Positions 3,477 to 57,882 of a stretch of 57,882 nt of DNA are shown here, piece by piece. Every line of letters begins with the position of its first letter. Position 1 is the first letter of the stretch. The notes below the pieces were generated by a model, which worked only from the letters and a program-made list of their open reading frames with translations, was not told the origin of the DNA and ran no database searches. Origin of the DNA: a virus (Duplodnaviria > Caudoviricetes); IMG/VR virus record IMGVR_UViG_3300035670_000247, positions 1 through 57,882 of that record. One strand, given 5' to 3'. The translations under genes were made by a program, and so were the position numbers.

Positions 3477-3477
3477 A

Positions 3478-3753: not shown

Positions 3754-3757
3754 TGTG

Positions 3758-5221: not shown

Positions 5222-5408
5222 TGTGCTGTCCTCGTTGCAATGCTTTGATCATATTCAGCATCTCTTCAAATTTCAGCGCGGTCTCCAACAGCTCCATGCC
5301 GATAAATTCGAGATCATGCCCATGCGTATCAGCTAAAGCTATTGCTCTGGTGCCGGCAGACGCAACATTCTTCCGCAGTTCTGTCAGTTTAGTCATAAAT
5401 TCGTTCAT
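5199..5408 (-). CDS. Hypothetical protein
   Basis: Overlap-coupled to neighbours. Confidence 0.55.
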   Translation of the reverse strand: MNEFMTKLTELRKNVASAGTRAIALADTHGHDLEFIGMELLETALKFEEMLNMIKALQRGQHNVQQMEK

Positions 5409-6154
5409 GGCAGGTTAGCCCCGATCCACGTCAGCAGCGTGTTAAGAGTGATTCTACGGTGGGTTCCGTCGCTTGCGTCATACAACAGGAGGTAGTCGGT
5501 GCTGGCCAACGTCGTTCCCGCCGCGTAGGTGTTGATCAGATACAGCAGTTCTGCTGCGGACACATTGCCGAGCTGCAGCTGTCCGTCGTCGGCGCATTCC
5601 ACCGTCCATCCATCGATGGGATCGCCTATTGGGTCCATGCCCTCATTAATAGCTGCCACCAGAGCATCGACCTCATCTGCCGTGTAGTAAGCCAGTCCGG
5701 CTGACGATGGCAGGGTGTCGGCGGGGCGTTCGACGTTGTTCCACAGCGTCACCGAATAGTCCACGCTGTAGGCTGCGGTGGCGTCTGATATGTGGATCAT
5801 TACCGGTGCCCGTGGTTCATCCCCCAGATAGTTGAATGCTTCCGTCGTGTTAAGGTCAATGACCACCGAGAGCAGTGCTCCGTCAACATGAAATGCGGCT
5901 CCTGTGGCTATTGCAATGACCGTCTCGTAGTCGTCCTGGGGTTTGATGGTGCATTTGTAAACACCGCCATCGAACCATGCTCCTGATGCAAGGGCAAATA
6001 CCAGCGTTGGCTGCGTCCCGGCAACCAGCCTTCCGGCCTGCGTCATGTTGCCGGACGTCGCATTGACTGTAAATGTCACTGTAGGCGTCGCCGCGGCCGC
6101 TGCGGCCAGCAGTGCGATAGATAGACAAACCAGGCGTCGTATTATTATCATCAT
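5405..6154 (-). CDS. Tail-fibre/BppU-like protein with signal peptide
   Basis: RRLVCLSIALLAAAAAA leader, a beta-rich domain and a YYTADEVDAL fibre motif. Confidence 0.6.
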   Translation of the reverse strand: MMIIIRRLVCLSIALLAAAAAATPTVTFTVNATSGNMTQAGRLVAGTQPTLVFALASGAWFDGGVYKCTIKPQDDYETVIAIATGAAFHVDGALLSVVIDLNTTEAFNYLGDEPRAPVMIHISDATAAYSVDYSVTLWNNVERPADTLPSSAGLAYYTADEVDALVAAINEGMDPIGDPIDGWTVECADDGQLQLGNVSAAELLYLINTYAAGTTLASTDYLLLYDASDGTHRRITLNTLLTWIGANLP

Positions 6155-13918: not shown

Positions 13919-14638
13919 CTAGCCTGAGATACAGAATCGTCTTGCCGTTCCTCGGCGGTACGCCTGCCGCGCCGCGTCCTCTTTGCAGTTATCCCATTTG
14001 GGGATCCATACGGCTGCGGCGGTGTTCTGGTCGGTCCATGGTTTGCCGGGCTGCATCATCAGTTCGGCCAGCGCCCCGGCGGCAATGCCCTCGCCAAACC
14101 GGTCGAGCAGCCAGCCGGGAATTTTAGAATCAAACAGCGGCGGCCGCAGCACTATGTTGCAGACAATGCCCTGGTCGTGTGTCTCTTGCCACTCCGTCCC
14201 ATCCCACGCCCCGGCGGCCACTGCATCCCGGGCCTGGTAGTATTTTGAATCGTAGCGGACATAATCCCCGGCGCTATAGGCTGCGCCTGCGTCAAAATCG
14301 GCGACATCTGTGTCTTCATCCGGGACATTGTGCGGATCAAACATCAGCGCAGTCTCATCTTCCATCCAGTAGTCAGCCTCGTGCTGCTCCACGCCGCCGC
14401 ATTTAAGCCACGCTATTTCATGCGGCACGCCGTCGTCGAGGTCGTCACCGCTGGGCAGCGTGTACTCTGTCTGGTACGCGACAATCGGCAGATGAATGTC
14501 CTTAGTCCAGATATGCGTCTGCATACAGAGTGTCCGCGCCGTTGAAATCAGCGTATGCAGCTGCAACGGCTGGGGACACCCAGAAAGCAGCGGATGCAGG
14601 ATCGGCAGCAGGTCGCGGAATGAATTGGCTCGGCTCAT
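13919..14638 (-). CDS. Head-tail adaptor with inserted carbohydrate-binding-like module
   Basis: GCP...C.QT.IW start and IAAGALAELMMQPGKPW end; insert FDAGAAYSAGDYVRYDSKYYQA. Confidence 0.7.
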   Translation of the reverse strand: MSRANSFRDLLPILHPLLSGCPQPLQLHTLISTARTLCMQTHIWTKDIHLPIVAYQTEYTLPSGDDLDDGVPHEIAWLKCGGVEQHEADYWMEDETALMFDPHNVPDEDTDVADFDAGAAYSAGDYVRYDSKYYQARDAVAAGAWDGTEWQETHDQGIVCNIVLRPPLFDSKIPGWLLDRFGEGIAAGALAELMMQPGKPWTDQNTAAAVWIPKWDNCKEDAARQAYRRGTARRFCISG

Positions 14639-14979
14639 TATCCAACAGCCTCCTGAAATATCTGTTTGTGCAGAGCGGCTGTCTGGTTGTCGCCTGCCAG
14701 TTTAGTCTCGGCAAGTGCGCGGAATATGACATAGGATGCCAGCGCGTCATGAAAAGACTCGACCAGACCGAGCTCATCGCCTGCCGCATAATCGTCCGAC
14801 ACATCTTCCGTATAGCGCACGGAGTCTGTATAAAGCGAGTGCGGCGCCTTGGCGGCGATAATGCGCCGTCCCTGGCTGGCATACGCCATCAGCGCGGCAT
14901 CGGACCACCGGTAGGTGGCAACCGTGTCGCCGATCACCGGGCGGATGTCGTTGGCGATGAGCTGGTCAATGGTCTTCAT
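14638..14979 (-). CDS. Head-tail connector/adaptor
   Basis: D....YRWSDAAL..Y...ALASYVIFRAL pattern. Confidence 0.65.
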   Translation of the reverse strand: MKTIDQLIANDIRPVIGDTVATYRWSDAALMAYASQGRRIIAAKAPHSLYTDSVRYTEDVSDDYAAGDELGLVESFHDALASYVIFRALAETKLAGDNQTAALHKQIFQEAVG

Positions 14980-15604: not shown

Positions 15605-15677
15605 CCGGCGGGAACGGGAGTTTTCCGCTCCCGCCGGGGTTTTTTCCGTTCCCCGGGGGAATTTTCGGGGACGGAAA
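15605..15677 (-). terminator. Tandem hairpins after the capsid-decoration gene
   Basis: CCGGCGGGA..TCCCGCCGG and TTTCCG..CCCCG/CGGGG.CGGAAA. A T-rich tail follows on the minus strand. Confidence 0.65.
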
Positions 15678-15685
15678 GGGGTGGG

Positions 15686-16387
15686 TTAGTTGTCGTAGGT
15701 TCCGGCGATGAACATCTGCATTTCATCGTCCACGTTAACTACGCTTGTGATGTTGCATTTGATCCCGGCGGGCGTTATATCGCCGACCGCGAGCGGTGCA
15801 AGATCATACATCGGAGTGATGGCTTCGATCACCCCGCTCGGTGCGGCGCGGTCGAGGGTCACTTCATTGGCCGCCTCACCCTGACCAGCGGTCAGCGCGG
15901 TGATGGTGTACCACACGCCGTCGATGCAGATTTTCGAGCCTTCGCCGATCCTGCCGCCTGACGCCACATCCTCATTGAAGTGGCCGGTGCGGTTGCCCGC
16001 TGTGTCCAGGGTCCAGGTGCTGATGACTTCCGTCACCGCCGAACCGCCGTTGGCAGTCGAATTGCGCTCGTCGCGTGTCATCCGCTTGTCGAAGGCCAGA
16101 TACACGCCCTCGCCATAGTCCGCGCTGGTCTGCATTGCCGCAGTCAGTACCTCTCCGCCTTCATACGGCTCAAACCCGTTGCCGGCGGTCAGCAGACTCA
16201 GGGCTGTAGCCCCGTTGGTATCGAGAATACCGTTGATGCAGTCAGCGGCCCGCATATCGCGATTCCATGCCGCGTTGGCTCCGGCATCGTCCTCCAGGGC
16301 GAGCAGCTTGATGAAGTCGGGAATGAACCCGAGACACAGAAACACGGCTGCGCCTGTTCCGTTGAATGTACCAGTGACAACTTTCAT
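15686..16387 (-). CDS. Capsid decoration/minor head protein
   Basis: VTGTFNGTGAA..LCLGFIPDFIKL; directly after the major capsid gene. Confidence 0.6.
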   Translation of the reverse strand: MKVVTGTFNGTGAAVFLCLGFIPDFIKLLALEDDAGANAAWNRDMRAADCINGILDTNGATALSLLTAGNGFEPYEGGEVLTAAMQTSADYGEGVYLAFDKRMTRDERNSTANGGSAVTEVISTWTLDTAGNRTGHFNEDVASGGRIGEGSKICIDGVWYTITALTAGQGEAANEVTLDRAAPSGVIEAITPMYDLAPLAVGDITPAGIKCNITSVVNVDDEMQMFIAGTYDN

Positions 16388-20025: not shown

Positions 20026-20068
20026 ACCCTATCGTATCAGATCATTTTCGTCAGGGACATTTTTTTCA
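20026..20068 (-). promoter_or_regulatory. Late promoter: 17-bp box plus -10 (inside the portal 3' end)
   Basis: TGAAAAAAATGTCCCTG-N20-TAGGGT. Confidence 0.75.
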
Positions 20069-21993
20069 GCCGATTGTCTGCCCTTCTGCATTGACCTGAT
20101 TTTGGAGGCGATCTCGGCTCGGTCCAGCTTCAGTTTCTCGAATTCCAGTTCGAGCTTGCGCTGTTCCATTTCGATTTTAGCGCGGGTCGCTTCGGCTTCG
20201 GCTTTGGCTTTCTCTGCCTCGGCCTGAGCTGTCTGCAGTTCCAGCTGCCGTACAGGATCGCTGGCTCGCGCTTCGTCCCGCGCCTGCTTCTCATCGGCTG
20301 TCAAGAGCACGCTGTTCTCGCTGAATCCGTGCGCCTTCGCTATCTGTTCTGCCAGCGGCCGCCAGTCAATTTCATCCGCGAGCTGCGGACTGCTCGACAT
20401 CGCCTGTATAAACTGATTGATCTTGGTAATCAGCAACACGCGGTCCTGATACAGCGAATATCCTATCGGTGTGACGTTCCAGTCGCCTTTGGCCGGGCTG
20501 TTCGGATCGAGCATGTTGTACCGGTAGAAGTCGGCGACTATTGGTTCGGTGAGCATCTCGTCAATATTCCGCACCACCTTGGCCAGGTATTTGGCTCCTT
20601 TATCCGCCATCTGCGCGGCCTGGTACGCGGTCTGCACGTCCTGCCCGCTGGGGTTGACACCGTGGACGATATTAGGAATCAGGCTGGTCTCCTCCAGATA
20701 CCTGTCAGAATAATTCAGCAGAGAGATCAGACTGTCGCCGACATCCGTCACAACAAACTGCTGCATGGCCTGGCGGATGTCTTTACAGCTGTCCTCCAGC
20801 TCCATGGCCACACCGGGTTTGAATTTGCCGTCCCAGCCAGCCGGCATGTATCGTTTGACGGCGGCAAACATGACATTGCCGGACAGCTTCTTATTATCCT
20901 CGAACGCCCGCCAGCCGCCGTTGATCACCCGCTGCATATCCTGCACCGCGTCGGCCACCCCGTGCGCATCAATGCTGTCGATTGACTCTTCCCACTCCAG
21001 TCTGTAGTAAGGCCGGTCTTCCGGCTCGGTCAGAAACAGGCGAATGATACAGTTGTCAACCATGACGGCGTGGACCTCAATGTCATCGCCGTCGTCCTGT
21101 TCGTTTCGTTCGAGGTCAATCCCTGCGGATTTCCGTTCGTCCATAAACCGCCGGACGTACTCCCGTGGCACACGTCCCCAGAACTCTATGCGTTCAATGG
21201 AGCTTTCGCGTTCGGCCAGGTCGCGGTCTGTCGGTTTCCCGGTGGTGTTGCGTAATTTGGTTTTATCTGTGCGGTCATAGTCTTTCAGCAGACGGTCGAT
21301 GTCTTCTTTGAAATAGCCGTCCTCGTTGCGGAGCTGGCGCAGGCTGAATTTGCTGATCAGGCTAATTTCACATATCCCGGCGGAGTCGGTCAGATTATCT
21401 GTCTCCAGATCGCGGTATATGTCCCAGGTGCTGACCCACGCCAGGCCAGGGGCCCATTCCGATATTGAGTATTCCTCCCACTGGTCACTGTCTGGCACAG
21501 ATTTCCGCCAGCCGCCGCGGCGGATCTCGTGCATGTACCTCTTGCCGTAGCCCTCACCGTAGATTGCCGCGCTCAGAATGATTCTGGCATATTGCCGGTC
21601 GGCATGACAGGCCAGCATCTGCCTTTGAATGTTAGCCTTCATTTTTGCGCGGGCGTCGCGATTCACAGCCTGCATTGGTTCCGGGAGCTGTTCCTGTTCG
21701 ATGTCGGCCATAGGATTGTTGACCAGATCAAATGGAATACCGCCGCCGCTAAGCTCCATGTCCACTACGAGCGAAACCGCAGCCATGACTTTCATGCGAG
21801 TTACTTGGATAAATGTGTCGCTCCGCCATGCCTCGCCTTCTTCGGTTTTCCACTTTCTGTGTTCAGTATCATTGGCGCGGAAATAGTCAATGTTGAGGTT
21901 CCACTTGCTCTCCAGCGGCTGGCGGTTGTTGCGCCATGTCTGGCATTTCTCGCGGATAAATTCGGCAAGGCTTGTGGTCGGATTGTCCGGCAT
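20029..21993 (-). CDS. Portal protein
   Basis: 654 aa after the terminase; AIYGEGYGK, IEFWG, GVAD...DMQ..IN...R...DN; C-terminal coiled coil. Confidence 0.88.
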   Translation of the reverse strand: MPDNPTTSLAEFIREKCQTWRNNRQPLESKWNLNIDYFRANDTEHRKWKTEEGEAWRSDTFIQVTRMKVMAAVSLVVDMELSGGGIPFDLVNNPMADIEQEQLPEPMQAVNRDARAKMKANIQRQMLACHADRQYARIILSAAIYGEGYGKRYMHEIRRGGWRKSVPDSDQWEEYSISEWAPGLAWVSTWDIYRDLETDNLTDSAGICEISLISKFSLRQLRNEDGYFKEDIDRLLKDYDRTDKTKLRNTTGKPTDRDLAERESSIERIEFWGRVPREYVRRFMDERKSAGIDLERNEQDDGDDIEVHAVMVDNCIIRLFLTEPEDRPYYRLEWEESIDSIDAHGVADAVQDMQRVINGGWRAFEDNKKLSGNVMFAAVKRYMPAGWDGKFKPGVAMELEDSCKDIRQAMQQFVVTDVGDSLISLLNYSDRYLEETSLIPNIVHGVNPSGQDVQTAYQAAQMADKGAKYLAKVVRNIDEMLTEPIVADFYRYNMLDPNSPAKGDWNVTPIGYSLYQDRVLLITKINQFIQAMSSSPQLADEIDWRPLAEQIAKAHGFSENSVLLTADEKQARDEARASDPVRQLELQTAQAEAEKAKAEAEATRAKIEMEQRKLELEFEKLKLDRAEIASKIRSMQKGRQSAEKNVPDENDLIR

Positions 21994-22673: not shown

Positions 22674-24116
22674 TCAAATGGCTCCTTTGTCCGCGTAGGC
22701 GGCTACAATCCCTGTATTTTGCATTCCGGCTGAATCCGGCGGCAGCGAGCCGTCTGTCATCCCTTGTACCCACTTGAGCGGCCTCGTCATAAACATCAGT
22801 GCCGCCTCGTCGTAGATATGATCTTCGAGCTTCTTGTCAACATCTTCCGGCTTGTTCGGGTCGCTCTGCAGCAGGGGGATGGTGCGGATAAAATCGGCGC
22901 AGCAGTCGTACACCTGCAGCATTGGCGTTCCAATCCGGTTTTTGCGGTCATCTCTTGGGACGCGCAGGCGGGCGTGGAATTGTCTGATCTTCATTACGCG
23001 GTCGGGATTGCCCTGCTGCAGCGTGATTCCGTGCCTGGCAAATGTCGCAGCGGTGCTGGGACTCTGCCCGCCATGCACATAATCCGGCTTTTTCGCCCAT
23101 GCGTCCGGGGGGGCTATGCGGATTACCGGGCGGTCAATTCCGAGCGATTGTTCCTTGGCCGCGATCTCTTCTGCAATCTCGTCGTCGCCCTGGCGCAGCC
23201 CGGTATCGGGCTGGTTGGGCATACATCCATAAAGCTCGGCGAAACGATAGGCGCGGCCGTCCTCGTCGAACCACCACCAGCCGACGCTGTACGGGCGGGC
23301 AAACCCGAGATCGAGCGTCATATACAGCGGCGCAGTGTCCGGGATCGGGATTGGTTTGATAACATGATCCTTGCTGTTGAACTCAAACATCTGGCCAAGG
23401 AAAATATTCCAGTCGCCGTCCATATACGCGGTGCGGTACGGTTCCGGCAGCGCGTTCAGACGATTGATGTAATTGGGGTCGCGCTCCAGCAGGATCGGGT
23501 TATCCTGAAGCCGGCCGGGGATATACTGCCGCAGCATTCCGCCTTCATCGTCGGGGGCGCGTTTGCATTGATACGGCTTGGCGGTATCGATCCAGCGCCG
23601 CTTCACCCATGCGTGGCCGACGCCGCCTGGGTTGGAGCTTGTGTAGATGCCGGGGATTTTATGCTGAAATTGCGGCGGAATATCGAGCGTTGTCCGTGTT
23701 CTGCCGCGCAGATAATCATAGATGAATTCGGAAAAGGTCGTCAGCTCATCGATGGCCAGAATATGGATTTCAGCGCCCTGATATGAGAATACATCCTTTT
23801 CGTATTGACAATAGCCAAAGAAAATGATTGAGCCGTTATGCAGGTGCCACCGGTTCTTGTCCGATCGGTAGCGGCCTATGTCGCGGGGAAACTGCTGCAG
23901 TGACGGCAGGATATGGTTCTTCTCCAGCTCCGGCAGCGTCCGCCGAAAGATGTACGCCTGCAACCCCGGAATCAGCAGCGCCCATTTCAACACCTCGAAC
24001 CGCAGCGCATGACTCTTGCCCGGACCCGCCGCGCCGCCGAACAGTACCTCATTCGCCGGGCTGGCATGAAGCTCCTGCTGCTTTGGCTGCGGCGTATAGT
24101 CCAGTTCGATGTTCAT
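22674..24116 (-). CDS. terL: Terminase large subunit
   Basis: Walker A GGAAGPGKS, Walker B ILAIDE, SSNPGG, nuclease motifs DLGF and EDHIYDE. Confidence 0.95.
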   Translation of the reverse strand: MNIELDYTPQPKQQELHASPANEVLFGGAAGPGKSHALRFEVLKWALLIPGLQAYIFRRTLPELEKNHILPSLQQFPRDIGRYRSDKNRWHLHNGSIIFFGYCQYEKDVFSYQGAEIHILAIDELTTFSEFIYDYLRGRTRTTLDIPPQFQHKIPGIYTSSNPGGVGHAWVKRRWIDTAKPYQCKRAPDDEGGMLRQYIPGRLQDNPILLERDPNYINRLNALPEPYRTAYMDGDWNIFLGQMFEFNSKDHVIKPIPIPDTAPLYMTLDLGFARPYSVGWWWFDEDGRAYRFAELYGCMPNQPDTGLRQGDDEIAEEIAAKEQSLGIDRPVIRIAPPDAWAKKPDYVHGGQSPSTAATFARHGITLQQGNPDRVMKIRQFHARLRVPRDDRKNRIGTPMLQVYDCCADFIRTIPLLQSDPNKPEDVDKKLEDHIYDEAALMFMTRPLKWVQGMTDGSLPPDSAGMQNTGIVAAYADKGAI

Positions 24117-24777: not shown

Positions 24778-25007
24778 ATCTTTTTCTTTTGTTAAAACCC
24801 AACAAGCCAAATCGAGCCTACTTGCTATTGCTGCGAGGCTCATTTGCAGCGTTGTAGTGGTCGTTCTTCTGGCACGCGAACACAACCAGGCTTATGTCTG
24901 GTCCGACATGCTTCAGCACCTTTCCCCTCGCACCGCTGAACGGCTTGAACCCGTCGCGGCAGTCGCAGCGGACGTAGCTGTCCAGCGGTGGAGGGGAGGG
25001 CATTTGC

Positions 25008-25805
25008 TCAACCTGCTGCGGCATTGTCCCTGCCGTCCTCTGGAGAAAGGCCGTTGGTGGCCCATTGCAGGACGAATCCCATGGCAAACCACAGAGAACT
25101 CTTGATTCGTTCGTAGCCAACCTTCTTCCCGATCTCCTCGTCGTAGTTGTCGGGATCGACGCAACTGCTGGCTTCATGCTGCACGAATCCGGTTTGGGTC
25201 GTCACCGACACGAGGGCGGTTTTGGGGTCGATGCGCTGCAATGTCGGGCGCCCGGCAAAGCGTTCGACATCGGCTTCCGTGATTCTGTTCGGGTTTTCAA
25301 GCCGGAAGTACGCCGCTTCGAACACATTATTGGGCGACCACGATTCATAGCCGTCCGGGTATTTGACCAGGTATCCCATGCGCTCGTGCTGAGGCGACGG
25401 GATGTTGTGAGTGCTCCAGTATGCTCTTACGGTATTGACGAAAATGCTGTCCTTCTTTTTCTGTTCGCCCGGCAGTTGGTCATACGGAACCATGCACGGG
25501 TGTTCCTTTTTCTCCGGATCCTTGACCGGCCCGTACTTCCATCCGGTTTCCTGCTTGTGACGCAGCCAGTTTTCGTGACTCTGCACGGGGGAGTTGTTTC
25601 CATGCACAACCATGGAAACCCCGTCGATTACGCTGGCTTTCTGCCATTCGGGAGCCTCGTCCCATGGCGGCTGGCTGTCGTCGCCGATGCTCTGGCAATA
25701 CTCGCGGTTGGCTTCGTGGGCCGCCTTTGCCGCCTGGGCAATGTGAAAACCCAACTCCCCGCACGGAGTTGCTTCGATCAACTTTACACCGATGTACTTG
25801 TCCAT
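25008..25805 (-). CDS. Fusion protein: KYIG..K/SWSP domain with inserted RyR domain, plus Gp49-family C-terminus
   Basis: RyR: HENW...GWKYG..KD..KKEHPCMVPYDQL..EQKKKD. Gp49-like: SSCVDPDNYDEEIG...LW..MGF.LQ. Confidence 0.8.
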   Translation of the reverse strand: MDKYIGVKLIEATPCGELGFHIAQAAKAAHEANREYCQSIGDDSQPPWDEAPEWQKASVIDGVSMVVHGNNSPVQSHENWLRHKQETGWKYGPVKDPEKKEHPCMVPYDQLPGEQKKKDSIFVNTVRAYWSTHNIPSPQHERMGYLVKYPDGYESWSPNNVFEAAYFRLENPNRITEADVERFAGRPTLQRIDPKTALVSVTTQTGFVQHEASSCVDPDNYDEEIGKKVGYERIKSSLWFAMGFVLQWATNGLSPEDGRDNAAAG

Positions 25806-47400: not shown

Positions 47401-47913
47401 ATGAACATGACAACAAGAATTGAAGCTAACGCGGCCAGCCCAGACGAGTTGATCGCAGACCTGTTTGAGCAGCCGGCGGTATGCCCGGTCTGCGAACGGC
47501 AGGCAACGGCCTCCAGCGCCAACCATGTCCCGTTTTGGGTGGCGTGCAGCTGCGGCTGGGAAGGAGACCGCGAGCAGGCGATGACGGCGGCAGACCAGCG
47601 GATGCTCGCCCAACTGCGCGGCCGCCGCGAGGCCGAACGCCGCGAACTCGCCGCCAGGATCGAGGCCGACAGGCAGGCTGAGGCCGAGAATCAGCGGCGA
47701 CGCATGGAATTTCTGCGCAGGATCGAGGCCGACAGGCAGGCTGAGGCCGAGAATCAGCGGCGACGCATGGAATTTCTGCGCAGCCCCCAGGCCGACGCCC
47801 ACCTGGCCGCAGTCAACGCCGAAGCGGCGCGCATCAGCAGCCAGACGACCGCCCGTCGCCTGCGCCAGGCGGCCGATCGTCTGGCCGCGGAAATCGCCGC
47901 CGCCCGCGCTTGA
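47401..47913 (+). CDS. Zn-ribbon/coiled-coil hypothetical protein
   Basis: AAGGAG SD; CPVC..CSC. Confidence 0.65.
   Translation: MNMTTRIEANAASPDELIADLFEQPAVCPVCERQATASSANHVPFWVACSCGWEGDREQAMTAADQRMLAQLRGRREAERRELAARIEADRQAEAENQRRRMEFLRRIEADRQAEAENQRRRMEFLRSPQADAHLAAVNAEAARISSQTTARRLRQAADRLAAEIAAARA
47655..47783. repeat. Perfect 63-bp tandem duplication
   Basis: Units at 47655 and 47718 (RIEADRQAEAENQRRRMEFLR x2). Confidence 0.9.
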
Positions 47914-50523: not shown

Positions 50524-51187
50524 TCTCCCTTTGTTGATTGTTGTGCATAAGTGTTGCTAAATGTTCCTTCGCCAGTTCCTTGCGGATGAGTGCCGTCCAC
50601 GTTGCGCGGATTTCGGCCTGTATCTCAGCGTCGATCTGCTCCCACTCCTGCCGGAGTCCGCGGCGGTCGGTGAAATCGTCCTCGATTACCTTCACGATCC
50701 ATTCTGCTGTGTCCATCGTCGTCTCCTTTTGTTGCGGAGCGCTAACAAGGCGACCGGACGTACAAAGAAAACCGCGCCTGTCAACTTGGCCGTTCGGCCA
50801 ATGATCTGTAACAGCTGTAAAGGTGCCGTCGTCCTCTTGTTCAACGCGAACCACATTGAGACTCGTTGATCCGTGAACGATTCCATCTGAACATTCGCAG
50901 CGAATATTGACACGAGGTAAACCCGAACAATCAGATTCAGTAGACTTCGTACCGCCGTCCTTTATTTCTGGGCTCGGCAAAGGAGGTAGCGGCATCTTCC
51001 TTGCGCCGGTGTACAGGCTGATTTGTATAGTCCAGCGCAGCCAGCCGATCGATATCCAAACACAACCGGGATAGCCCCAGCATCCTGGTTCACGGTCGCA
51101 TGCTAAATGTGGAAACACGTATATGCAACCTTTGAACCACCTTACGGAAAGACGGCGAATTAAATTATCCCATCTGTATGTTTTCAT
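50513..51187 (-). CDS. Hypothetical; in-frame chain of small modules separated by attC-like remnants (internal start 50716)
   Basis: AAGGAG SD before MDTAEW; attC-like elements at 50740 and 50922. Confidence 0.45.
   Translation of the reverse strand: MKTYRWDNLIRRLSVRWFKGCIYVFPHLACDREPGCWGYPGCVWISIGWLRWTIQISLYTGARKMPLPPLPSPEIKDGGTKSTESDCSGLPRVNIRCECSDGIVHGSTSLNVVRVEQEDDGTFTAVTDHWPNGQVDRRGFLCTSGRLVSAPQQKETTMDTAEWIVKVIEDDFTDRRGLRQEWEQIDAEIQAEIRATWTALIRKELAKEHLATLMHNNQQREKWS
50740..50798 (+). repeat. Degenerate attC-like site
   Basis: CGCTAAC...GTTCGGC, with the left L box apparently 4 nt short. Confidence 0.55.
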
Positions 51188-51209: not shown

Positions 51210-51911
51210 CTATTCACCAAGTATTCGTGCAAGATTGCTTTTCTTGCGGATTTCTATCCCTGCCGATTGCAGTGCGTCTATTAAGCTAATTACATCAGTA
51301 CGTGACGGTTCAGGCAGGTTGGTCTTCTTGCTGTCTGCGCCAATGTTTATCCATGTCGGATTTGCTGTCAAGATTAGTTTCATTAATCCATCAAGACTGA
51401 ATTGCATGATTGGCTCAATGGTAATGTATGTTTCGCATATCGACCGCCACCGTTGCAAGCCGTTTATTCGCTCTTGTGGTGTAGGCGCATAACTTAACAC
51501 TTTAGATAACAACGAATAATCCGTTTCAAGTGTTGTCCCAACCGTGAACAGTGGCGGCATTGTGCAACCTTCCAGGAAAAATAATCGTCCTGGGTCACGT
51601 GTCTGAAAAACATAATGATTATCTGGATATGCGTTGCAATGTGCCATAATCTGCCTAATCCAATCATCAGCTACGCCATCGCTGCACAAATCATTACAGT
51701 GTTCAATGAAAATTTTGCGACCCTTGCCGTAATTAATATGAAGTTCCTTCTCAATCAAGTGCGTTTCGCCCGAATACTTACCAGTGCGAAACCGCTTCTC
51801 CATTGCTTGGACATAGCAATAGCTACATTGATTGGCACATTGTCCTGCCAAATGCGCATGGGTATGTGTTACCCAGTCGTACATATTCCCTTTTGCTTTA
51901 GTCATTGCCAT
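51210..51911 (-). CDS. DUF5131/Gp37Gp68-like radical SAM protein
   Basis: CANQCSYC; TIEPI; WINIGADS. Confidence 0.8.
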   Translation of the reverse strand: MAMTKAKGNMYDWVTHTHAHLAGQCANQCSYCYVQAMEKRFRTGKYSGETHLIEKELHINYGKGRKIFIEHCNDLCSDGVADDWIRQIMAHCNAYPDNHYVFQTRDPGRLFFLEGCTMPPLFTVGTTLETDYSLLSKVLSYAPTPQERINGLQRWRSICETYITIEPIMQFSLDGLMKLILTANPTWINIGADSKKTNLPEPSRTDVISLIDALQSAGIEIRKKSNLARILGE

Positions 51912-52206: not shown

Positions 52207-52426
52207 TCTCCATGTTTGTTCCGCCTGTATGGCGGATTAATGTTACTGTTGCTGAATGTCTATGTTCGACGTATCCACAAACACACGACGCCCCATTTGC
52301 GCTCCTACGCCACGCCCGGCGGGGTTTCCTGCATCGCCCATCTTCGCGTTGATGCTCGCAACCGTCGCAGGCACGGCGAACAAGCCCATCGACGGGACGG
52401 CTCATAGCGCGGTTTCTCGTAGTCAT
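52169..52426 (-). CDS. Small Cys-rich hypothetical protein
   Basis: AAGGAG SD; N-terminus runs through an attC half-site. Confidence 0.5.
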   Translation of the reverse strand: MTTRNRAMSRPVDGLVRRACDGCEHQREDGRCRKPRRAWRRSANGASCVCGYVEHRHSATVTLIRHTGGTNMENEHDRQILRRRD

Positions 52427-52429
52427 GGC

Positions 52430-52488
52430 GTCTCCTTTTGTTGCGGAGCGCCAACAAGGCGACAGGGCGTACAGAGAAAACCGCGCCT
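52430..52488. repeat. 59-bp dispersed repeat (other copy at 50721-50779)
   Basis: GTCTCCTTTTGTTGCGGAGCGCYAACAAGGCGAC...AGAAAACCGCGCCT, 4 mismatches. Confidence 0.9.
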
Positions 52489-52593
52489 TTGTTTCGCCTT
52501 GCGTGGTTGTGGTATCTCTGGTCTTGCGTCTATGCTCATGGTTAGTTCTCCTTGTTTTGTTCTGCCTTTAAGGGCGGGTTAAAACAACTGTTG

Positions 52594-52851
52594 CTAAATG
52601 TCTATGTTGGCCTCTTGAGCCCTCAACGTCGCTTCGTCGATAAGCGCTTCCAGGAACTGCCAGTGAAACGGATGTCCGTTGGCTGGGCCAGCCCCGGCGT
52701 CAACATATCGACGTAGTCGCGTCAAGTCGCCAAGCACGTCGGTCGTGGCGTGCGGGATCATCAGTTCGACTGCCGCTTCGTATAATGCGTCCAGTCGGCG
52801 CACGACAAGCGGCACATCAATTTCGATTGTAGCTTTAGGCATAGTCGCCAT
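52594..52851 (-). CDS. Hypothetical protein
   Basis: GAGG SD; co-oriented. Confidence 0.55.
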   Translation of the reverse strand: MATMPKATIEIDVPLVVRRLDALYEAAVELMIPHATTDVLGDLTRLRRYVDAGAGPANGHPFHWQFLEALIDEATLRAQEANIDI

Positions 52852-52863
52852 GATTTTTGATCC

Positions 52864-53037
52864 TCACATTACGATTAGCCAAAACGCCAGAGCCGCCCCG
52901 GCTGCAAATAATGCTACGAGCGGTCCAAGCACAAACCAAACGGCACCTACGGACGTTGCCAGCATCACCGCGTACCCGGCCCGCCGTCGCCGTCTTTGCT
53001 GTTCTTCTTTGTCTCTTAGCCATTGCGGTTTTTGCAT
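52864..53037 (-). CDS. Small two-TM membrane protein
   Basis: Basic N-terminus followed by a hydrophobic hairpin. Confidence 0.55.
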   Translation of the reverse strand: MQKPQWLRDKEEQQRRRRRAGYAVMLATSVGAVWFVLGPLVALFAAGAALAFWLIVM

Positions 53038-53067
53038 CTCGTTTTCCTTCCGCCAGGCCAGCCCATC

Positions 53068-53126
53068 GGCCAACCAGGCGATGGAGACGGACGGGCTATC
53101 GCCCGCCGCTCATCTCGTTGTTCGCA
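53068..53126 (+). repeat. attC-like site
   Basis: GGCCAAC-CAGGC-GAT[G]GAG..CGGGC-TATC-GCCCG..CTCATC-TCGTT-GTTCGCA. Confidence 0.8.
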
Positions 53127-53407
53127 GAATCAATATGTGCAGTCTCTCCTGCTGTCACCGATATGCTACCGGTGGGTACGCGCCCATTGTTCCGGCCAGC
53201 GGCTACGGTCGCCGATCTCCACCAGTCCTCGAACATGCCTTCGACGCTTTCCACGTCAAAGCCGTCCGTCGGCCCGACGGTCTGTTGTGGATTCAACGCG
53301 ACCCATGCGGCAAGTGCACGAAACGGCACTTCCCCGAAGTTCAGCACGGTAGCGCCGGGCCACTTCTCCGCCATGTCGGCGGCGTCCTTGATCTCTTCCA
53401 ACGTCAC
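53096..53407 (-). CDS. Hypothetical cassette-like gene
   Basis: GGAGG plus GTG start; lies between two attC-like sites. Confidence 0.55.
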   Translation of the reverse strand: MTLEEIKDAADMAEKWPGATVLNFGEVPFRALAAWVALNPQQTVGPTDGFDVESVEGMFEDWWRSATVAAGRNNGRVPTGSISVTAGETAHIDSANNEMSGGR

Positions 53408-53685
53408 AGCGTACCTCCCTGCGAACAATCGGATGGAGAGGGACGCGGAATACCGCGCCCCTCATCCGTCGCGTTGGCGGCAGCAAACTCCCGCAGTCCT
53501 TCGCGCACAATCAACCACGGATCGCCGATGAACGCGGTCAGCGTCTCGACAGAAAACGCCGCAGTCTGTGCGATGTCCTGTCCGCCATGGCGGGCCATCA
53601 CGGTCACGCGGGCTTCTTTGCCTGCCACGCAGACTGCTATGGCGTCCGCGCCCAGGTCTTCCTTCAGTTTAAACAGGCATCTCAT
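53404..53685 (-). CDS. Hypothetical cassette-like gene
   Basis: Lies between attC-like sites; its C-terminus reads through the site. Confidence 0.55.
   Translation of the reverse strand: MRCLFKLKEDLGADAIAVCVAGKEARVTVMARHGGQDIAQTAAFSVETLTAFIGDPWLIVREGLREFAAANATDEGRGIPRPSPSDCSQGGTL
53420..53479 (+). repeat. attC-like site
   Basis: TGCGAAC-AATCG-GAT[G]GAG..CGCGG-AATA-CCGCG..CTCATC-CGTCGC-GTTGGCG. Confidence 0.85.
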
Positions 53686-54047
53686 CGTTGATCCTTTCCG
53701 CCAACCACGCCTCCGACCGTACCGGCGGAAGCCGCCGGCCGGTCAAGGCTGGCGTTCGGCTTCTTGCCGCGCCCGACAAACACGTAGTCTTCCGGCCCCA
53801 ACGTGCAGACGCAATGCGTCCCGCCGTCGCCGCAGGTGAACAGCTTTTGCGGCGCCCGCGCCTTTGGCTCCGGCCCCGGCCAGAACAGCGTGAACCACTC
53901 CATCCCCGGCGCAGTCCACGGGATTGTCGCCTCTGCCCGCTTCACCCGTTCTTCAAGTTCCGCGATCCGGCGTTGCGCCCACTTCGGAAGCCGAACCAGC
54001 GGGTCGAGCGTACCCGAAACCCGCGCTTGCGTTGTCTTCGATTTCAC
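53682..54047 (-). CDS. Hypothetical cassette-like gene
   Basis: LPKWAQRRIAELE motif; start codon lies inside an attC loop. Confidence 0.6.
   Translation of the reverse strand: MKSKTTQARVSGTLDPLVRLPKWAQRRIAELEERVKRAEATIPWTAPGMEWFTLFWPGPEPKARAPQKLFTCGDGGTHCVCTLGPEDYVFVGRGKKPNASLDRPAASAGTVGGVVGGKDQR
53699..53760 (+). repeat. attC-like site
   Basis: CGCCAAC-CACGC-CTC[C]GACC..CCGGCGG-AAG-CCGCCGG..GGTCAAG-GCTGGC-GTTCGGC. Confidence 0.85.
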
Positions 54048-54092
54048 GTGTCCTCCGAGCGGGTTTCGGGCCGCTCACCCGTAGCGTTGTGC
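53990..54092 (+). repeat. attC-like site (long, RBS in loop)
   Basis: GCCGAAC-CAGCG-GGT[C]GAGC..CCCGAAACCCGC/GCGGGTTTCGGG..GCTCACC-CGTAGC-GTTGTGC. Confidence 0.85.
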
Positions 54093-54673
54093 TTACTGCA
54101 TCTCCGCGCCAGTTCCACCAGCCAGGCGGCGAACGCCGGCGGCGTGGCCTCGCGCTCCTTGTGCGACACCCACGGCAACAGGCCCGCGCTGTTCGGCCTC
54201 TCGGCCTTCCGTGCGCGGCCGGGCCGGTCAACAACGTGCGTCGGCTTGCCGGCGCGGCGCGGCATGGCTGGAACGTCTCGCGTGCCGACCACGTACAGCA
54301 GCGTCCGCTTGCGCGCCTTGTGTTCCCAATGGAACTGGTCAACCTCCAGCGTCATGCCGCCCCATTCGTCTGGCAGTCCACCTGGGAGTGCGCAGCCGCA
54401 CTCCCGGAAGAGCGTGCTGCCCTTCGGGTGCTCCAGCACGCCGCCCCACTGGCGCACCTGGTCAATCGCCCACGGCCCCAAGGCGTGCTCGTGGGCAGGC
54501 GCGGCGGTCGCAAAGTGCTTGAGGCATCCCCATGTCCGACACGGCGGATGCGCCACCACCGGGCAACCGCCAGGCCACGTCCGGGCGTCGCGCTCGGCGT
54601 CGTAGCAGTCCACGCCGGGCAGCGTCTTGTAGATGCTGTCGGCACGGACAAAGAGCACAACAACAGGGTCCAC
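54044..54673 (-). CDS. C5-cytosine DNA methyltransferase-like protein
   Basis: VVAHPPC (motif IV), VLEHP (motif VI-like), Q..W.H.ARK.T (motif VIII-like). No canonical FxGxG. Confidence 0.65.
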   Translation of the reverse strand: MDPVVVLFVRADSIYKTLPGVDCYDAERDARTWPGGCPVVAHPPCRTWGCLKHFATAAPAHEHALGPWAIDQVRQWGGVLEHPKGSTLFRECGCALPGGLPDEWGGMTLEVDQFHWEHKARKRTLLYVVGTRDVPAMPRRAGKPTHVVDRPGRARKAERPNSAGLLPWVSHKEREATPPAFAAWLVELARRCSKHNATGERPETRSEDT

Positions 54674-54726
54674 GTTATTGCCCCTCCGCTTCGCTTCGGG
54701 TCAAAACGTGACCCTGAGCGTTAGCC
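54655..54726 (+). repeat. attC-like site
   Basis: GCACAAC-AACAG-GGT[C]CACG-TT...AA-CGTGACC-CTGAGC-GTTAGCC. Confidence 0.85.
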
Positions 54727-54917
54727 TTTAAGGCATCGTCCACTGCCTTGCGATCTTCCTTGGTCGCAGATGGGAATACCATGTCATCCACCCATGACTT
54801 GCGGAAATCCAAGCTGACTTGGTGGTGCAAGATTCCGATATTCCAGATGCGCCCTCCCCACGGCCACGTGTCGAGGTAGAACCGGCGTTTGAAGCAAGTC
54901 TCCCCCAGCCTGGTCAA
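54675..54917 (-). CDS. Hypothetical cassette-like gene
   Basis: Stop codon falls inside the attC loop. Confidence 0.5.
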   Translation of the reverse strand: MTRLGETCFKRRFYLDTWPWGGRIWNIGILHHQVSLDFRKSWVDDMVFPSATKEDRKAVDDALKANAQGHVLTRSEAEGQ

Positions 54918-55261
54918 GCTGCATCATCCGTATCTCCTGTGTTCTCGACGACGATCTTAGCTGGCCCCTGACACAGCTGACAGCGCGGCGACGGCGGCGG
55001 CTCAGCGCCGTAGGATTCGCGCCAGACATGCAGGCACGACTCGCACGCCAGCAGCCGCTCGCCCACGAACAACCCGCGCTCCAGCACCAGCATGTGCCTG
55101 TTGGTTCTGGAGCATTTGCGGTAGGAGAGAGCCACTTTGGCGCCGCATTTGATAACATGACACGCCATGCGGAACAGAAACTCTGCGTCATCGATCGTCA
55201 ACGGATCTAATACTGGCCACTGCGTCCGCCTGACACTCTCTTCATACCGTGCTGTTTTCAT
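54914..55261 (-). CDS. Zinc-finger hypothetical protein
   Basis: CESC..CQLC. Confidence 0.55.
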   Translation of the reverse strand: MKTARYEESVRRTQWPVLDPLTIDDAEFLFRMACHVIKCGAKVALSYRKCSRTNRHMLVLERGLFVGERLLACESCLHVWRESYGAEPPPSPRCQLCQGPAKIVVENTGDTDDAA

Positions 55262-55451
55262 TGTGCGCCTCCATTGCCGCCTTGAGTTTGCGTTTCAGCT
55301 CAATCACTACATCCTTGATAGCCTGTTGCCGCGCAAACATGGCTATCCTGAATTCTGCCTTTGTCAACATCGGCATACCGACGCTGCGGGTGCGCACCGG
55401 CCGGTTTTCCTGCCGGGCCGCCACTTCATCGATCAGATTATCCCAATTCAC
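55242..55451 (-). CDS. Hypothetical protein
   Basis: AGGAGG before the GTG start. Confidence 0.5.
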   Translation of the reverse strand: MNWDNLIDEVAARQENRPVRTRSVGMPMLTKAEFRIAMFARQQAIKDVVIELKRKLKAAMEAHNENSTV

Positions 55452-55644
55452 TTGCGTCCTCCTGGCGTTTGGTGATGCAGCACCTGCGATCCCAGTCAGC
55501 CGCATCCTGCGGAGTAATCCGCAATGCGCGTCCATACCGGTGCGCTCTCAGAGTGCCGGCAGCAATGTGCCGGTACACGGTCATGCGGCTGATCTGCCGC
55601 TCTTCCGCCACATCGGCAACGGATAAAAATGTTCTCATTCGCAT
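55438..55644 (-). CDS. Excisionase-family HTH protein
   Basis: FLSVADVAEERQISRMTVYRHIAAGTLRAHRYGRALRI. Confidence 0.85.
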   Translation of the reverse strand: MRMRTFLSVADVAEERQISRMTVYRHIAAGTLRAHRYGRALRITPQDAADWDRRCCITKRQEDASELG

Positions 55645-56426
55645 AACAGGCTCCTCACGACATCTTCAATGGCATCCAATGCGCCATTCTGAATCTCTTC
55701 ATCTGTCTGCACATAGCTGGTGGTCGATGTTATTTTCGCGTGCCCGAGAAGCTTCTGCATCTCAAGCAGAATATTGACCGGGGTGCCTGATGCCTTGAGA
55801 CTTTTCAGGTGATCGTGTGCTATGCGGGCATACGTCTTGCGCAGGCCGTGAGTGGCGAGCCCGCTGTCATCCAGCCCGGCGCGGCGATACGCAGACCTAT
55901 ACGCCTTGTATGCGCCGACACGACTCAGCCTCTTGCCTGTTGTCGTGCAAAAAAACGGCCATGTTTTGAGTATTTGCCCCTGCGCCCGGATCTGTATCCA
56001 CCAGGCATCCAATGCCTCCCAGGCCATCGGCATTAGCCGGAACGTGCGGGAATCAATGCTGACGGTCTTTTTGCCCCGGATTTGCCGGGCGGCCGAACGG
56101 CAAATCCGATCCAGTTCTGTGCCGGGGATAACATCCGCCAGCAGCATATCAAGATTCTCCTCGACGCGCCTGATAATGTGCTCGATATTGCCAGGGCGGG
56201 GGGCAGATTTTTTGCCGTTCTTGAGGTTGTGCCGCTCTATCGTGATAACGTCTCGGACGCGGTCGGCCGCAACCACGTCACCTACGTTCAGCGACAGCAC
56301 CTCGCTGATGCGCAGCCCCGTTGTGGCCTGCATGATCATCAGCGCACGGTTGCGGGCGCGGGCAGAGCCGCTGAACGCCGCCAGCACGTCTCTCAATTCG
56401 TCGTTGGTCATTGCACGGGTTCTCAT
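55635..56426 (-). CDS. Second tyrosine recombinase (catalytic domain only, with ~50-aa insertion)
   Basis: TGLRISEVLSL, K, THGLRKT, LLGH..ITSTTSY. Confidence 0.92.
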   Translation of the reverse strand: MRTRAMTNDELRDVLAAFSGSARARNRALMIMQATTGLRISEVLSLNVGDVVAADRVRDVITIERHNLKNGKKSAPRPGNIEHIIRRVEENLDMLLADVIPGTELDRICRSAARQIRGKKTVSIDSRTFRLMPMAWEALDAWWIQIRAQGQILKTWPFFCTTTGKRLSRVGAYKAYRSAYRRAGLDDSGLATHGLRKTYARIAHDHLKSLKASGTPVNILLEMQKLLGHAKITSTTSYVQTDEEIQNGALDAIEDVVRSLLCE

Positions 56427-56752
56427 TCGACAATTCTCCCGCACTCGGTGCAGAACATGTTTTCGCAATCGGCGGCGATAATGCCGCCGCACTCGCAATA
56501 CAGCGCGGCGGCAGAAGGGTGGTTGCTGATCGCAACGTGTTTTTCCAGGCGAAAAAGTGTTTTTAGAATTTTTTTCAGGAGATTCATCTTTTTTTTCCGC
56601 TGTTGCTGGTGGCATTCACTGCATAACATACGGCCTGTAACTGTCCGTCTGCAGACTCTGACTAATCTGCATTTGCCACAGTCTATTATCATCAGCCTCC
56701 AGCTTGGCCACGACAGACACAGCCCCGCTGCAAACTCCCACAGGCGCCTCAT
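56423..56752 (-). CDS. Zn-ribbon hypothetical protein
   Basis: Multiple CxxC motifs; overlap-coupled. Confidence 0.5.
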   Translation of the reverse strand: MRRLWEFAAGLCLSWPSWRLMIIDCGKCRLVRVCRRTVTGRMLCSECHQQQRKKKMNLLKKILKTLFRLEKHVAISNHPSAAALYCECGGIIAADCENMFCTECGRIVE

Positions 56753-57327
56753 GCCGCATATCCGTTGTTCATGAATTTATAGAACTGCACCGGCGAAACC
56801 CTGGCATCGAATGCCAGGTCAAGGATTTTCTGCGAGACATCACGAAACGCCTTGTGCTGCGCTGCCCTGCCCAGGCCGCAGTTCTTGCATGGATACACGA
56901 ATACATCGATGTTCCACCCCCGGCTCTGGTGATAGTGAGCCTGCTCCTGCTTGACAATGAAGGCGTGCTGTTTGGTGCCTTCCCACTTGAACGCCACCGG
57001 CGCGTACAACAGGCCGGTATGATCGCAGCAGGAGCAGCCTTCCGCCGCCTTGCCCGCCGAATAACCGGCGCCGCCGTTGGCCTTGGCGTAGGCGTCCTTC
57101 ACTGCAAAGAGGCTTGGATAATTCTTATCCGATCCTGCCTGGCGGCGCAGATCGTCCAGCACTTCATTCATCTTGTCCTGCTTCACCCAGTCATGGTTCA
57201 GCCACTTGCCGAAATGCACCAGCGGACTTTCCCCGCTGGCAATCTTCTCTTCCGTCCAGTTTCGCGGCAGCACAAAATACTGACACCAGAGACTCTGAAA
57301 ATCATTGACCGACATATTTGCCTGCAT
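56749..57327 (-). CDS. Replication-associated protein (loader position), Cys motifs
   Basis: Follows the initiator; CSCC...CKNC. Confidence 0.55.
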   Translation of the reverse strand: MQANMSVNDFQSLWCQYFVLPRNWTEEKIASGESPLVHFGKWLNHDWVKQDKMNEVLDDLRRQAGSDKNYPSLFAVKDAYAKANGGAGYSAGKAAEGCSCCDHTGLLYAPVAFKWEGTKQHAFIVKQEQAHYHQSRGWNIDVFVYPCKNCGLGRAAQHKAFRDVSQKILDLAFDARVSPVQFYKFMNNGYAA

Positions 57328-57882
57328 CTTCCATCTCCTTGATTTTGAGCATGACTAATTCTCCAGTGGACAGCTTTTTGCCATTCCGTCCCGTCGGCAG
57401 CTGCGCCGCTGGTGCGCTGCGGTCCGCATACTGGATGTACCGTCGCAGCATCTTGCCGGGGTTTGGGATTGAGTCCACACTTCCAATCACGTCCATGGCA
57501 AACTCATTCCAACCTCTGGATCTCATAGCCGGATCGGATTGTCCTTGCAGCGCGTTGATGATCACCTGTTCTGACAAAACCTGAAACGCAGGTTCAAGAT
57601 TTTTCGTGGCTTCGATGTACTGCTCGTATGTCCAGTCCGGCCTGGCGGTCGGCACGTCGCCGCCGAATCTCGCGCCCGCCCGCGATGGGGGGGGGTTATT
57701 TTTATCTTCTTTCCCTTCTTTATCTTCTTTACATTCTTGTATGTGTCCGTCTGTTGTACCGTCTGTTGTACCGTCTGTTGTACCGTCTGTTGTACCGTCT
57801 GTTGTACCGTCTGTTGTACCGTCTGTTGTACCGTCTGTTGTACCGTCTGTTGTACCGTCTGTTGTACCGTCTGTTGTACCGT
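57302..57882 (-). CDS. Replication initiator, C-terminal part
   Basis: (GTTD)n-GHIQECKEDKEGKEDKNNPPP...VPTARPDW is in frame with the listed ORF 57302..57655. Confidence 0.85.
   Translation of the reverse strand, partial: GTTDGTTDGTTDGTTDGTTDGTTDGTTDGTTDGTTDGTTDGTTDGHIQECKEDKEGKEDKNNPPPSRAGARFGGDVPTARPDWTYEQYIEATKNLEPAFQVLSEQVIINALQGQSDPAMRSRGWNEFAMDVIGSVDSIPNPGKMLRRYIQYADRSAPAAQLPTGRNGKKLSTGELVMLKIKEMEDAGKYVGQ
57747..57882. repeat. 12-bp tandem repeat, same array as 1-127
   Basis: Directly visible. Confidence 0.95.

Follow-up and report, generated by a model that had tools for sequence, protein, structure and literature searches.

The DNA analysed here is the 57,882-bp virus record IMGVR_UViG_3300035670_000247 (hereafter the window), a complete record with direct terminal repeats. 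Five co-oriented imperfect hairpins, in the order B, A, E, C, D, lie at successive minus-strand gene joints between positions 53,072 and 54,722 (Table 1). The evidence makes it quite probable that these hairpins are integron-type attC sites, that they form an integrase-less cassette array with its genes on the bottom strand, and that they double as translational joints. This view is carried by the anatomy and covariation of the sites, by the phase in which they are read, by the borders of the units that vary between related phages, and by like attC sites in a candidate host.

Structure and family of the hairpins

A first, sequence-only reading of this DNA had claimed that stops, ribosome-binding sites (RBSs) and starts are built into the two upstream hairpins, and the coordinates hold on the minus strand. 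The loop of site A, about 32 nt long, contains GGAGG (54056-54052) and the GTG start of a 121-aa open reading frame (ORF; 54047-54045), overlapped by the TGA of the preceding 209-aa ORF (54046-54044). Site B contains GGAGGGG (54687-54681), the TAA of the 80-aa ORF (54677-54675) and the GTG of the 209-aa ORF (54673-54671), with stop and start sitting in the 3' arm and not in the loop. Protein ends are thereby encoded by the sites: the 80-aa ORF has no stop of its own ahead of the AAC, and its tail, ..NAQGHVLTRSEAEGQ, comes from site B; the 209-aa protein takes its head, MDPVV, from site B and its tail, after ..SKHN, from site A; the 121-aa protein takes its head, MKSKTTQARVSGTLDPLVR, from site A and its tail, after ..KKPN, from site E. 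ORFs also enter or traverse the remaining hairpins, as the same reading had noticed. The 121-aa ORF is read through site E, which is followed by GGAAAGGA and an ATGA stop/start overlap (53685-53682), and the 93-aa ORF is read through site C, which is followed by AGGGAGG and a GTGA overlap (53407-53404). In site D, the loop holds the TAG of the 103-aa ORF (53098-53096), and the tail of that protein, ..NNEMSGGR, lies within the site. The recurrent ..NA.. tails are AAC-GCx read in the sites, and the heads ending in ..LVR or ..PVVV are the 3' arm plus GTT.

Hairpins were scored arm to arm, anchored on AAC and GTT; a scan by constrained minimum free energy was dropped because long branched folds dominated it. 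Two anchored hairpins scored 12 or more, against a mean of 0.05 in 40 dinucleotide shuffles, and three did so when a spacer was allowed (0.1 in 20 shuffles). No shuffle reached the score of site A (15.5-16.75). Folded as DNA, the sites gave z values from -2.2 to -4.6, with 0-4 of 200 shuffles as good (site B, -17.3 kcal/mol, z -4.14); folded as RNA, they gave -28 to -48 kcal/mol (z -2.5 to -4.8). A covariance model, R1, built only from phage sites on their coding strand, was run on both strands of 107 kb made up of the window and Tetrasphaera phage TJE1. Six sites were obtained at E ≤ 1.2e-4, all of them in the 57.9-kb window, five lying within 1.7 kb and all five on the minus strand. Site A was recovered at 41.5 bits (E 2.8e-7) although it was absent from the training set.

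Relatives were retrieved with a 26-mer and a 20-mer from the left arm of site A. The same element of about 95 nt was found in IMG/VR and in 67 metagenome loci, about 50 of which carry true copies of site A, the others being CRISPR (clustered regularly interspaced short palindromic repeat) arrays with a matching spacer, or unrelated. When the related loci were scanned for AAC..GTT hairpins, about 50 further sites appeared, with unrelated stem sequences. The sites follow a common plan: ..AAC, a spacer of 3-4 nt (GCC/GCT), stem, loop, stem, a TT-type spacer, GTT... Both boxes, AAC and GTT, are without variation in all 21 aligned short sites and present in all five window sites. The central spacer is unpaired, 3-4 nt on the 5' side (mostly GCC/GCT) standing opposite 2-3 nt (mostly TT); its column pair 11-69 is unpaired in 12 of the 21 aligned sites. 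In these 21 sites, 93.2% of the stem cells are paired, compared with 66.4% after shuffling and 34-41% after sliding; compensatory changes occur at 9 of 10 stem pairs, and covariation is 0.566 against 0.133 in the control, with none of 500 shuffles as high. G-U pairs make up just 2 of the 265 paired cells. A stem kept in this way by Watson-Crick pairs alone speaks for a role in DNA, or on both strands, and not in RNA. The two arms also differ in a constant way. Among 49 sites other than the A type, bulges occur on the 3' arm only in 37, on the 5' arm only in one, on both in nine and on neither in two, and of the 28 A-type sites, 26 have them solely on the 3' arm. The first bulge lies about 5-6 bp in from the spacer; the second, about 6 bp further, is usually a T within GTA (T in 26 of 42 non-A sites). 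In a census of the family, R1 gave 95 hits in 268 kb from 60 sources, or 82 after removal of duplicates. Site length ranges from 46 to 130 nt and, by eye, the hits of any one locus lie on a single strand.

Excerpts of PMC6393395 give extra-helical bases, an unpaired central spacer, a variable terminal structure and bottom-strand preference as hallmarks of attC. The geometry of the phage sites is that of the attC bottom strand of TJE1, a phage with a cluster of attC sites lacking integron integrase (CALIN). In the whole TJE1 genome, R1 ranks the three attC sites of this CALIN 1 to 3 of 34 hits, all three on the strand opposite the TJE1 ORFs. According to excerpts of PMC9892861, Qi et al. assayed six phage attC sites with IntI1, two of them from TJE1, and five of the six integrated. 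Structure, covariation and the recognition by R1 of attC sites from both TJE1 and a Kiritimatiellae genome (see below) thus bear out the earlier description of the hairpins as attC-like. Since the phage has no IntI, the array is itself a CALIN, with five sites within 1.7 kb and no intI. It does not have the intI beside the array that makes a complete integron, nor the canonical layout, in which a top-strand ORF with its own RBS and start outside attC is followed by the attC downstream.

The left arm of site A also occurs alone, forming a 6-bp hairpin, in L027, L031 and L037 (also in L016, L017, L032 and L052; these numbers denote loci retrieved in the searches). Followed by an RBS, the solitary arm precedes several different genes. 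Such arms may be what is left of decayed sites, half sites, or a small element in its own right.

Reading phase and cassette borders

The reading frame was followed into 62 sites with at least 40 open codons upstream. In 55 of them, AAC is a codon of the incoming upstream ORF (frame 0), with four sites in frame 2 and three in frame 1 (p 1.8e-19); without the A-type sites, frame 0 is found in 34 of 40. The upstream stop falls within the site in 47 of the 62 and after it in 15, 11-22 nt later in 10 of these 15. Starts of the next ORF lie within the site in 35 of 39 long-loop sites (loops over 70 nt); in short sites they lie after it in 14 cases, inside in eight and before in one. Stop and start overlap as NTGA at 30 of 76 joints. 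All together, the phase rule, the in-site starts and the overlaps argue for selection on translation through the sites. Counted by hand, 16 different downstream genes, one of which encodes a DNA methyltransferase, are entered in frame from the start in site A, as ORFs of 58-355 aa. At one gene, the potential own start codon, ATG or TTG in most copies, is CTT in L044, which favours use of the start borne by the hairpin.

It had been suggested that homologues of these proteins should have unrelated termini exactly beyond the AAC/GTT boundaries, and this is what the 209-aa protein shows. The PHROG profile covers just residues 2-197. Among the 120 best of 3,723 homologues, the conserved body of 29 ends at ..HN (N being the AAC codon) and then continues into 29 different tails; 90 do not have the ..HN boundary, most of them ending 16-26 residues past an anchor motif and a few running much longer, and one has no anchor motif. 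The heads that precede ..VVLFVR vary widely as well. One homologue (L001) has the natural ends, MVAALFVR.. and ..LARAC, and no hairpin; another (L002) has a different, hairpin-borne head. For the 121-aa gene, the conserved body ends at AAC in the window, L003 and L004, and the L004 homologue has a different N-terminus and no hairpin. L004 is a related phage contig with no attC hairpins, and a joint GGAGGTGAGTGATGG that comprises RBS, stop and start recurs in it at three successive gene borders (3860-4450).

The same borders are found in DNA alignments. Aligned with L003, the window shows no relationship ahead of the AAC of site A; identity of about 90% then sets in, holds as far as the AAC of the following attC and is lost past it. 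A second cassette, made of an A-type attC and a gene of about 70 aa, has the same two AAC borders in eight loci, in at least five upstream and at least five downstream contexts. Because identity is bounded by AAC, the mosaic unit is one attC plus the ORF downstream of it; as read from these alignments, its limits are at AA/C on the coding strand, which is the canonical G/TT on the plus strand (the slash marks the border). It follows that the RBS and start of an incoming gene arrive with it, borne by its own hairpin. The sequence-only reading had proposed that recombination gives such a gene a ready-made start; in this respect it needs correcting, since the start travels with its own gene, but the new neighbour does supply a ready-made C-terminal tail, stop and coupling overlap. 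In contigs from four sequencing runs, those of the likely source sample and of a sister sample break off or have loose ends at 53700, 53757 and 53760, which coincide with the borders of site E, a weak sign as it comes from contigs only. No clean cassette-skipping joint was seen among the contigs; three short joints at 54445-54540 were disregarded, as the pieces behind them are of low likeness with sides of 21-23 nt, and stretches that no contig covers carry no weight.

Candidate host, proposed mechanism and rival explanations

A search of a genome collection gave two hits, a CRISPR array in a metagenome-assembled genome (MAG) of Kiritimatiellae and a contig of a MAG from the Fibrobacteres-Chlorobi-Bacteroidetes (FCB) group. 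A spacer in the Kiritimatiellae MAG equals window positions 54050-54083, within site A, at 34 of 34 bases. The same MAG encodes three integron integrases (390.9, 387.3 and 360.6 bits against the NCBIfam cut-off of 265), and the attC sites beside the 390.9-bit intI score 52.8 and 50.3 bits with R1 and have loop motifs in common with the phage sites. The layout of this integron is the canonical one, with the cassette ORFs on the strand opposite intI, the stop before the attC and RBS plus ATG after it. Classical cassettes do work differently, as had been anticipated, since stops, RBSs and starts stand outside attC sites of the very same family. R1 matches the Kiritimatiellae attC sites on the intI strand, that is, the bottom strand. 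The phage genes are on the strand that R1 hits, and the phage array therefore consists of the same kind of site, backwards relative to the genes. A query with the 209-aa protein found no match in the Kiritimatiellae MAG and one in the FCB-group MAG.

Several side observations concern CRISPR arrays and these genomes. Type I-C-like CRISPR arrays in L012, L013, L042, L033, L062 and L079 have spacers against the conserved left arm of site A plus RBS, and other spacers of these arrays match elsewhere in related phage contigs. In the Kiritimatiellae integron (L089), about 130 nt are repeated after two cassettes (14610-14740 and 15620-15748), and an ORF with an integrase-type N-terminal region lies between the repeats on the opposite strand. 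The FCB-group MAG contig (L080) has four co-oriented R1 hits and a copy of the site A left arm at 3294-5611; it is probably a prophage or a mis-binned phage contig.

Starting from the observed anatomy, family, covariation, polarity, phase rule and cassette borders, and from a candidate host with IntI and like attC sites, we tentatively propose that a phage lineage, probably on Kiritimatiellae-like hosts, runs its accessory early genes as a backwards integron array in which host IntI shuffles attC plus ORF and attC serves as a universal, phase-locked translational joint; this scheme as a whole is possible rather than probable. With the genes on the attC bottom strand, each cassette consists of the attC first and then the ORF. 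The folded coding strand has, as has been partly shown, the geometry recognised by IntI. IntI supplied in trans by the host would cut AA/C in the 5' box (G/TT on the plus strand), and whole attC plus ORF units would then move. ORF bodies without a stop of their own would enter the attC of the next cassette in phase 0, with AAC read as Asn, and would end at a stop inside or just after it, often in an ATGA or GTGA overlap with the next start. The RBS and start for the next gene would be provided by the loop or 3' arm in the long-loop sites A and B, and directly after the short sites E and C. On completing the upstream ORF, ribosomes would, judging from this anatomy, melt the hairpin and pass to the next start. 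Translational coupling would be obligatory, and it would survive reshuffling because all joints share one phase. Melting of the hairpin by upstream translation accords with excerpts of PMC8876359 and PMC11511950, which report that attC hairpins block ribosomes and that short ORFs, as well as ORF-11 in attI1, relieve this block.

A number of results weigh against reading the array in this way. Scanned with the integron integrase profile TIGR02249 (cut-off 265 bits), the 57.9-kb genome yields no integron integrase, the tyrosine recombinase next to the array scoring 17.4 bits and the best protein of the genome 21.6, and none of four related viral records has one. The link to the host is one spacer (from the L079 array, which has 19 repeats) in an element common to many phages; as only this spacer of the array matched the window, the host assignment is tentative. 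R1 gives modest E-values on TJE1 (0.024-0.15) and recovers its sites only with filters off, and the first bulge is a G in just 18 of 46 non-A sites (C in 19, A in nine). Some mosaic breakpoints fall within the element or coincide with its GTT end, one upstream gene together with its left arm has three different continuations, and site A precedes 16 different genes, which an AA/C crossover alone is insufficient to explain. Such aberrant joints may have arisen by homologous exchange, by recombination of the other strand as a rarer event, or in the process by which attC sites become attached to genes.

Mosaics of this kind could also arise if the conserved joints of about 100 nt were homologous linkers, where general recombination between co-infecting phages exchanges modules and no site-specific recombinase takes part. 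Breakpoints within the element would be expected then, as would right-arm variants that follow the downstream gene, the three continuations after the RBS behind one upstream gene and left arm (L016/L052/L073; L017/L021), and the different, hairpin-free repeated joint of L004. However, most members of the family are alike only in structure and in their AAC/GTT boxes and hence offer no homology to recombine on, the units are bordered exactly at the AAC boxes, and neither the bulge geometry, the Watson-Crick-only stem nor the identity with intI-adjacent attC would be expected of linkers. We consider linkers an unlikely explanation of the array. It is a little less likely still that the hairpins act as RNA only, serving to couple translation, stabilise the mRNA or direct RNase processing, and have no function as sites in DNA. 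All sites are transcribed within genes and have the strong RNA folds given above, the stop/start overlaps and loop RBSs suit coupling, and class 1 integron attC hairpins are reported, in excerpts of PMC8876359, to impede ribosomes. A structure selected as RNA would nevertheless hardly be so poor in G-U pairs (2 of 265 cells), its bulges and spacer would not need to fit IntI substrates, and its family would not be expected beside an intI, there outside coding sequence, nor its mosaic units to be cassettes. No terminator-like tail follows the sites, and Rfam 15 gave no family match, only a sub-threshold one to Moco-II (24.4 bits against 35, E 0.34).

CALINs are often viewed as decaying arrays, and the sites could be passive relics of host cassettes that were acquired by accident, with attC functionless in the phage and read through by a chance lack of stops. 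The lack of IntI in the phage and the degraded look of site D and of a half site at 52380-52426 would agree with this. The phase, in-site start and overlap counts would not, and the orientation is opposite to that of host cassettes, so that the arrays are not simple copies of them; moreover, compensatory change keeps the structure across phage contigs. Relics are thus a very unlikely account of the array. The least credible explanation, to which we attach next to no weight, is insertion between genes of miniature inverted-repeat transposable elements. Imperfect terminal inverted repeats and the occurrence of the site A type in many contexts recall such elements, but no target-site duplication was seen in the sequences inspected, what moves is a unit with a complete ORF in it, the sequence differs among most members, and no transposase family was found among the scanned proteins near the window array, the related loci lying outside that scan.

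The array in its genome and among known systems

The window is the genome of a tailed phage, with a large terminase (22674-24116), a portal/adaptor (20029-21993), an internal virion protein and a 5,693-aa ORF. Minus-strand genes extend from about 57.6 kb down to 49.7 kb, and the array is part of this early, leftward-transcribed region of the complete genome, in a G+C-rich patch (63-65% against about 56% overall). The only promoter-like match in 52500-57700 is on the plus strand (56542-56569). The sites were rejected as intrinsic terminators: none of six terminator-like matches, with 5.1 expected by chance, is at a site. Neither of the two tyrosine recombinases of the window is an integron integrase in family scans, and a tblastn search of all loci with these recombinases and the array proteins found no recombinase homologue beside other arrays.

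Table 1. Sites and genes of the array and neighbouring or related features of the window. Hairpins are candidate attC sites; bits and E-values are those of R1.
Feature	Position	Strand	Remarks
Xer-like tyrosine recombinase	55635-56615	-	adjoins array; catalytic domain from only about residue 65; 60-residue insertion
Excisionase-type protein	55438-55644	-	
80-aa ORF	54675-54917	-	upstream of site B; frame 0; no family match; start TTG uncertain
attC site B	54659-54722	-	AAC 54722-54720 to GTT 54661-54659; 53.4 bits (training member)
209-aa ORF (phrog_12600)	54044-54673	-	cassette gene of site B
attC site A, long-loop type	53994-54088	-	AAC 54088-54086 to GTT 53996-53994; arms about 30 nt, imperfect
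121-aa ORF	53682-54047	-	cassette gene of site A
attC site E, short-loop type	53703-53756	-	53.3 bits; DNA fold z -3.83
93-aa ORF	53404-53685	-	cassette gene of site E; tail spans site C; no family match
attC site C, short-loop type	53424-53475	-	45.8 bits; DNA fold z -4.55
103-aa ORF	53096-53407	-	cassette gene of site C; GTG start 53407 overlaps upstream TGA
attC site D	53072-53122	-	32 bits, E 4.3e-5; weakest of the five; z -2.17 (4/200 shuffles as good)
Small membrane-type ORF	52864-53073	-	downstream of site D; start uncertain, TTG 53073 or ATG near 53036
Isolated attC-like site, outside array	24801-24853	-	30 bits, E 1.2e-4; hairpin score 9
Second tyrosine recombinase	2421-3476	+	

For the cassette genes, Pfam, NCBIfam and PHROGs gave no function, the exceptions being phrog_12600, itself of unknown function, and a weak match of the 121-aa ORF to DUF7239 (19.7 bits, below the cut-off). 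In a nucleotide search of a phage collection, part of the 209-aa gene matched four Pseudomonas phages at 68-73% identity; there were no other matches, and no hairpins were seen in these four. Outside the array, the isolated site lies at the 3' end of ORF 24818-25177, in a patch of lower G+C just upstream of the terminase module, and may be a single inserted cassette.

Other repeats were noted in the window. A 60-nt repeat, 93% identical, is present at 50720-50779 and 52429-52488 and flanks a low-G+C segment (44-48%) that holds a radical-SAM-like gene (51210-51911); both copies terminate in RBS plus ATG. Beside the second copy, the stretch 52380-52426 consists of an attC right arm only and yields the head MTTRNRAMSRPVDGLVR; full versions of this half site are present in L044 and L053. 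A 12-nt tandem repeat of at least 11 copies (57747-57882) reaches the end of the record within an open frame, and 47655-47780 is a perfect 63-nt tandem duplication.

With canonical integrons the array shares an imperfect hairpin boxed by AAC and GTT, an unpaired spacer, extra-helical bases on one arm and a variable terminal loop, together with conservation of structure over sequence, one ORF per pair of sites, co-oriented sites and G/TT borders. Unlike in canonical integrons, the phage ORFs are on the bottom strand and the attC precedes its gene; the ORF bodies are without starts and stops of their own, both arms are translated, and the loop carries stop, RBS and start; the joints share one reading phase, and there is no intI, nor was an attI or Pc identified, though no model of either was applied. 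Other examples of conserved joints that shuffle phage genes are the promoter-stem-loop cassettes of T4-type phages and the linker sequences of lambdoid phages. There too, small early genes have mosaic joints marked by short conserved elements at the gene borders, but these elements act by homology, lack the attC shape and are not translated as part of both adjoining genes.

attC sites and phage CALINs are themselves already known. As described in excerpts of PMC9892861, phage genomes including that of TJE1 contain integrase-less attC clusters like the present one, but the ORFs of TJE1 occupy the top strand, with the attC coming after the gene. Start codons and ribosomes do not occur in the main text of that paper, its supplementary tables being outside the scope of this statement. 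Closer parallels for translation come from class 1 integrons, where ORF-11 in attI1, short attC ORFs and fused cassettes, as described in excerpts of PMC8876359, have a frame that spans the recombination point and a stop from the incoming cassette, and where ribosomes that translate through or into the site lift the block by the hairpin and couple the next gene; the start of aacA4, in the same excerpts, comes from upstream sequence. These are single instances or attC losses, on the top strand, whereas the phage joints are systematic, phase-locked and on the bottom strand, with attC intact. Cassettes can also insert outside att sites, at attG, and remain as isolated cassettes (Loot et al., abstract of 10.1101/2022.09.11.507474). 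Such insertion could be an IntI route into a phage genome and would fit the isolated site at 24801-24853; going by its abstract, this work does not deal with reading frames or phage arrays. In the texts covered by our literature search, supplements being outside its scope, there was no report of bottom-strand coding, phase-locked translation or stop, RBS and start inside the attC sites of phage arrays, nor of an attC family shared by phage arrays and the integrons of a candidate host.

The published accounts, in the parts drawn on here, have a top-strand cassette ORF with its own translation signals and treat attC hairpins as obstacles to ribosomes. In this phage, an attC of the candidate host's family is used within coding sequence, on the recombinogenic strand and in a common phase. 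If host IntI acts on the array, phages would be able to swap small early genes, among which host-takeover and anti-defence functions are usually found, in a site-specific manner and without loss of expression, and integrons and phages would have a common cassette pool open in both directions. attC would then be shown to tolerate, or to be shaped by, translation, and pipelines that expect a top-strand ORF would miss or misread such arrays. Should these phages indeed run a backwards array, attC would be fused into coding sequence, and the origin of the attachment of attC to genes could become directly testable.

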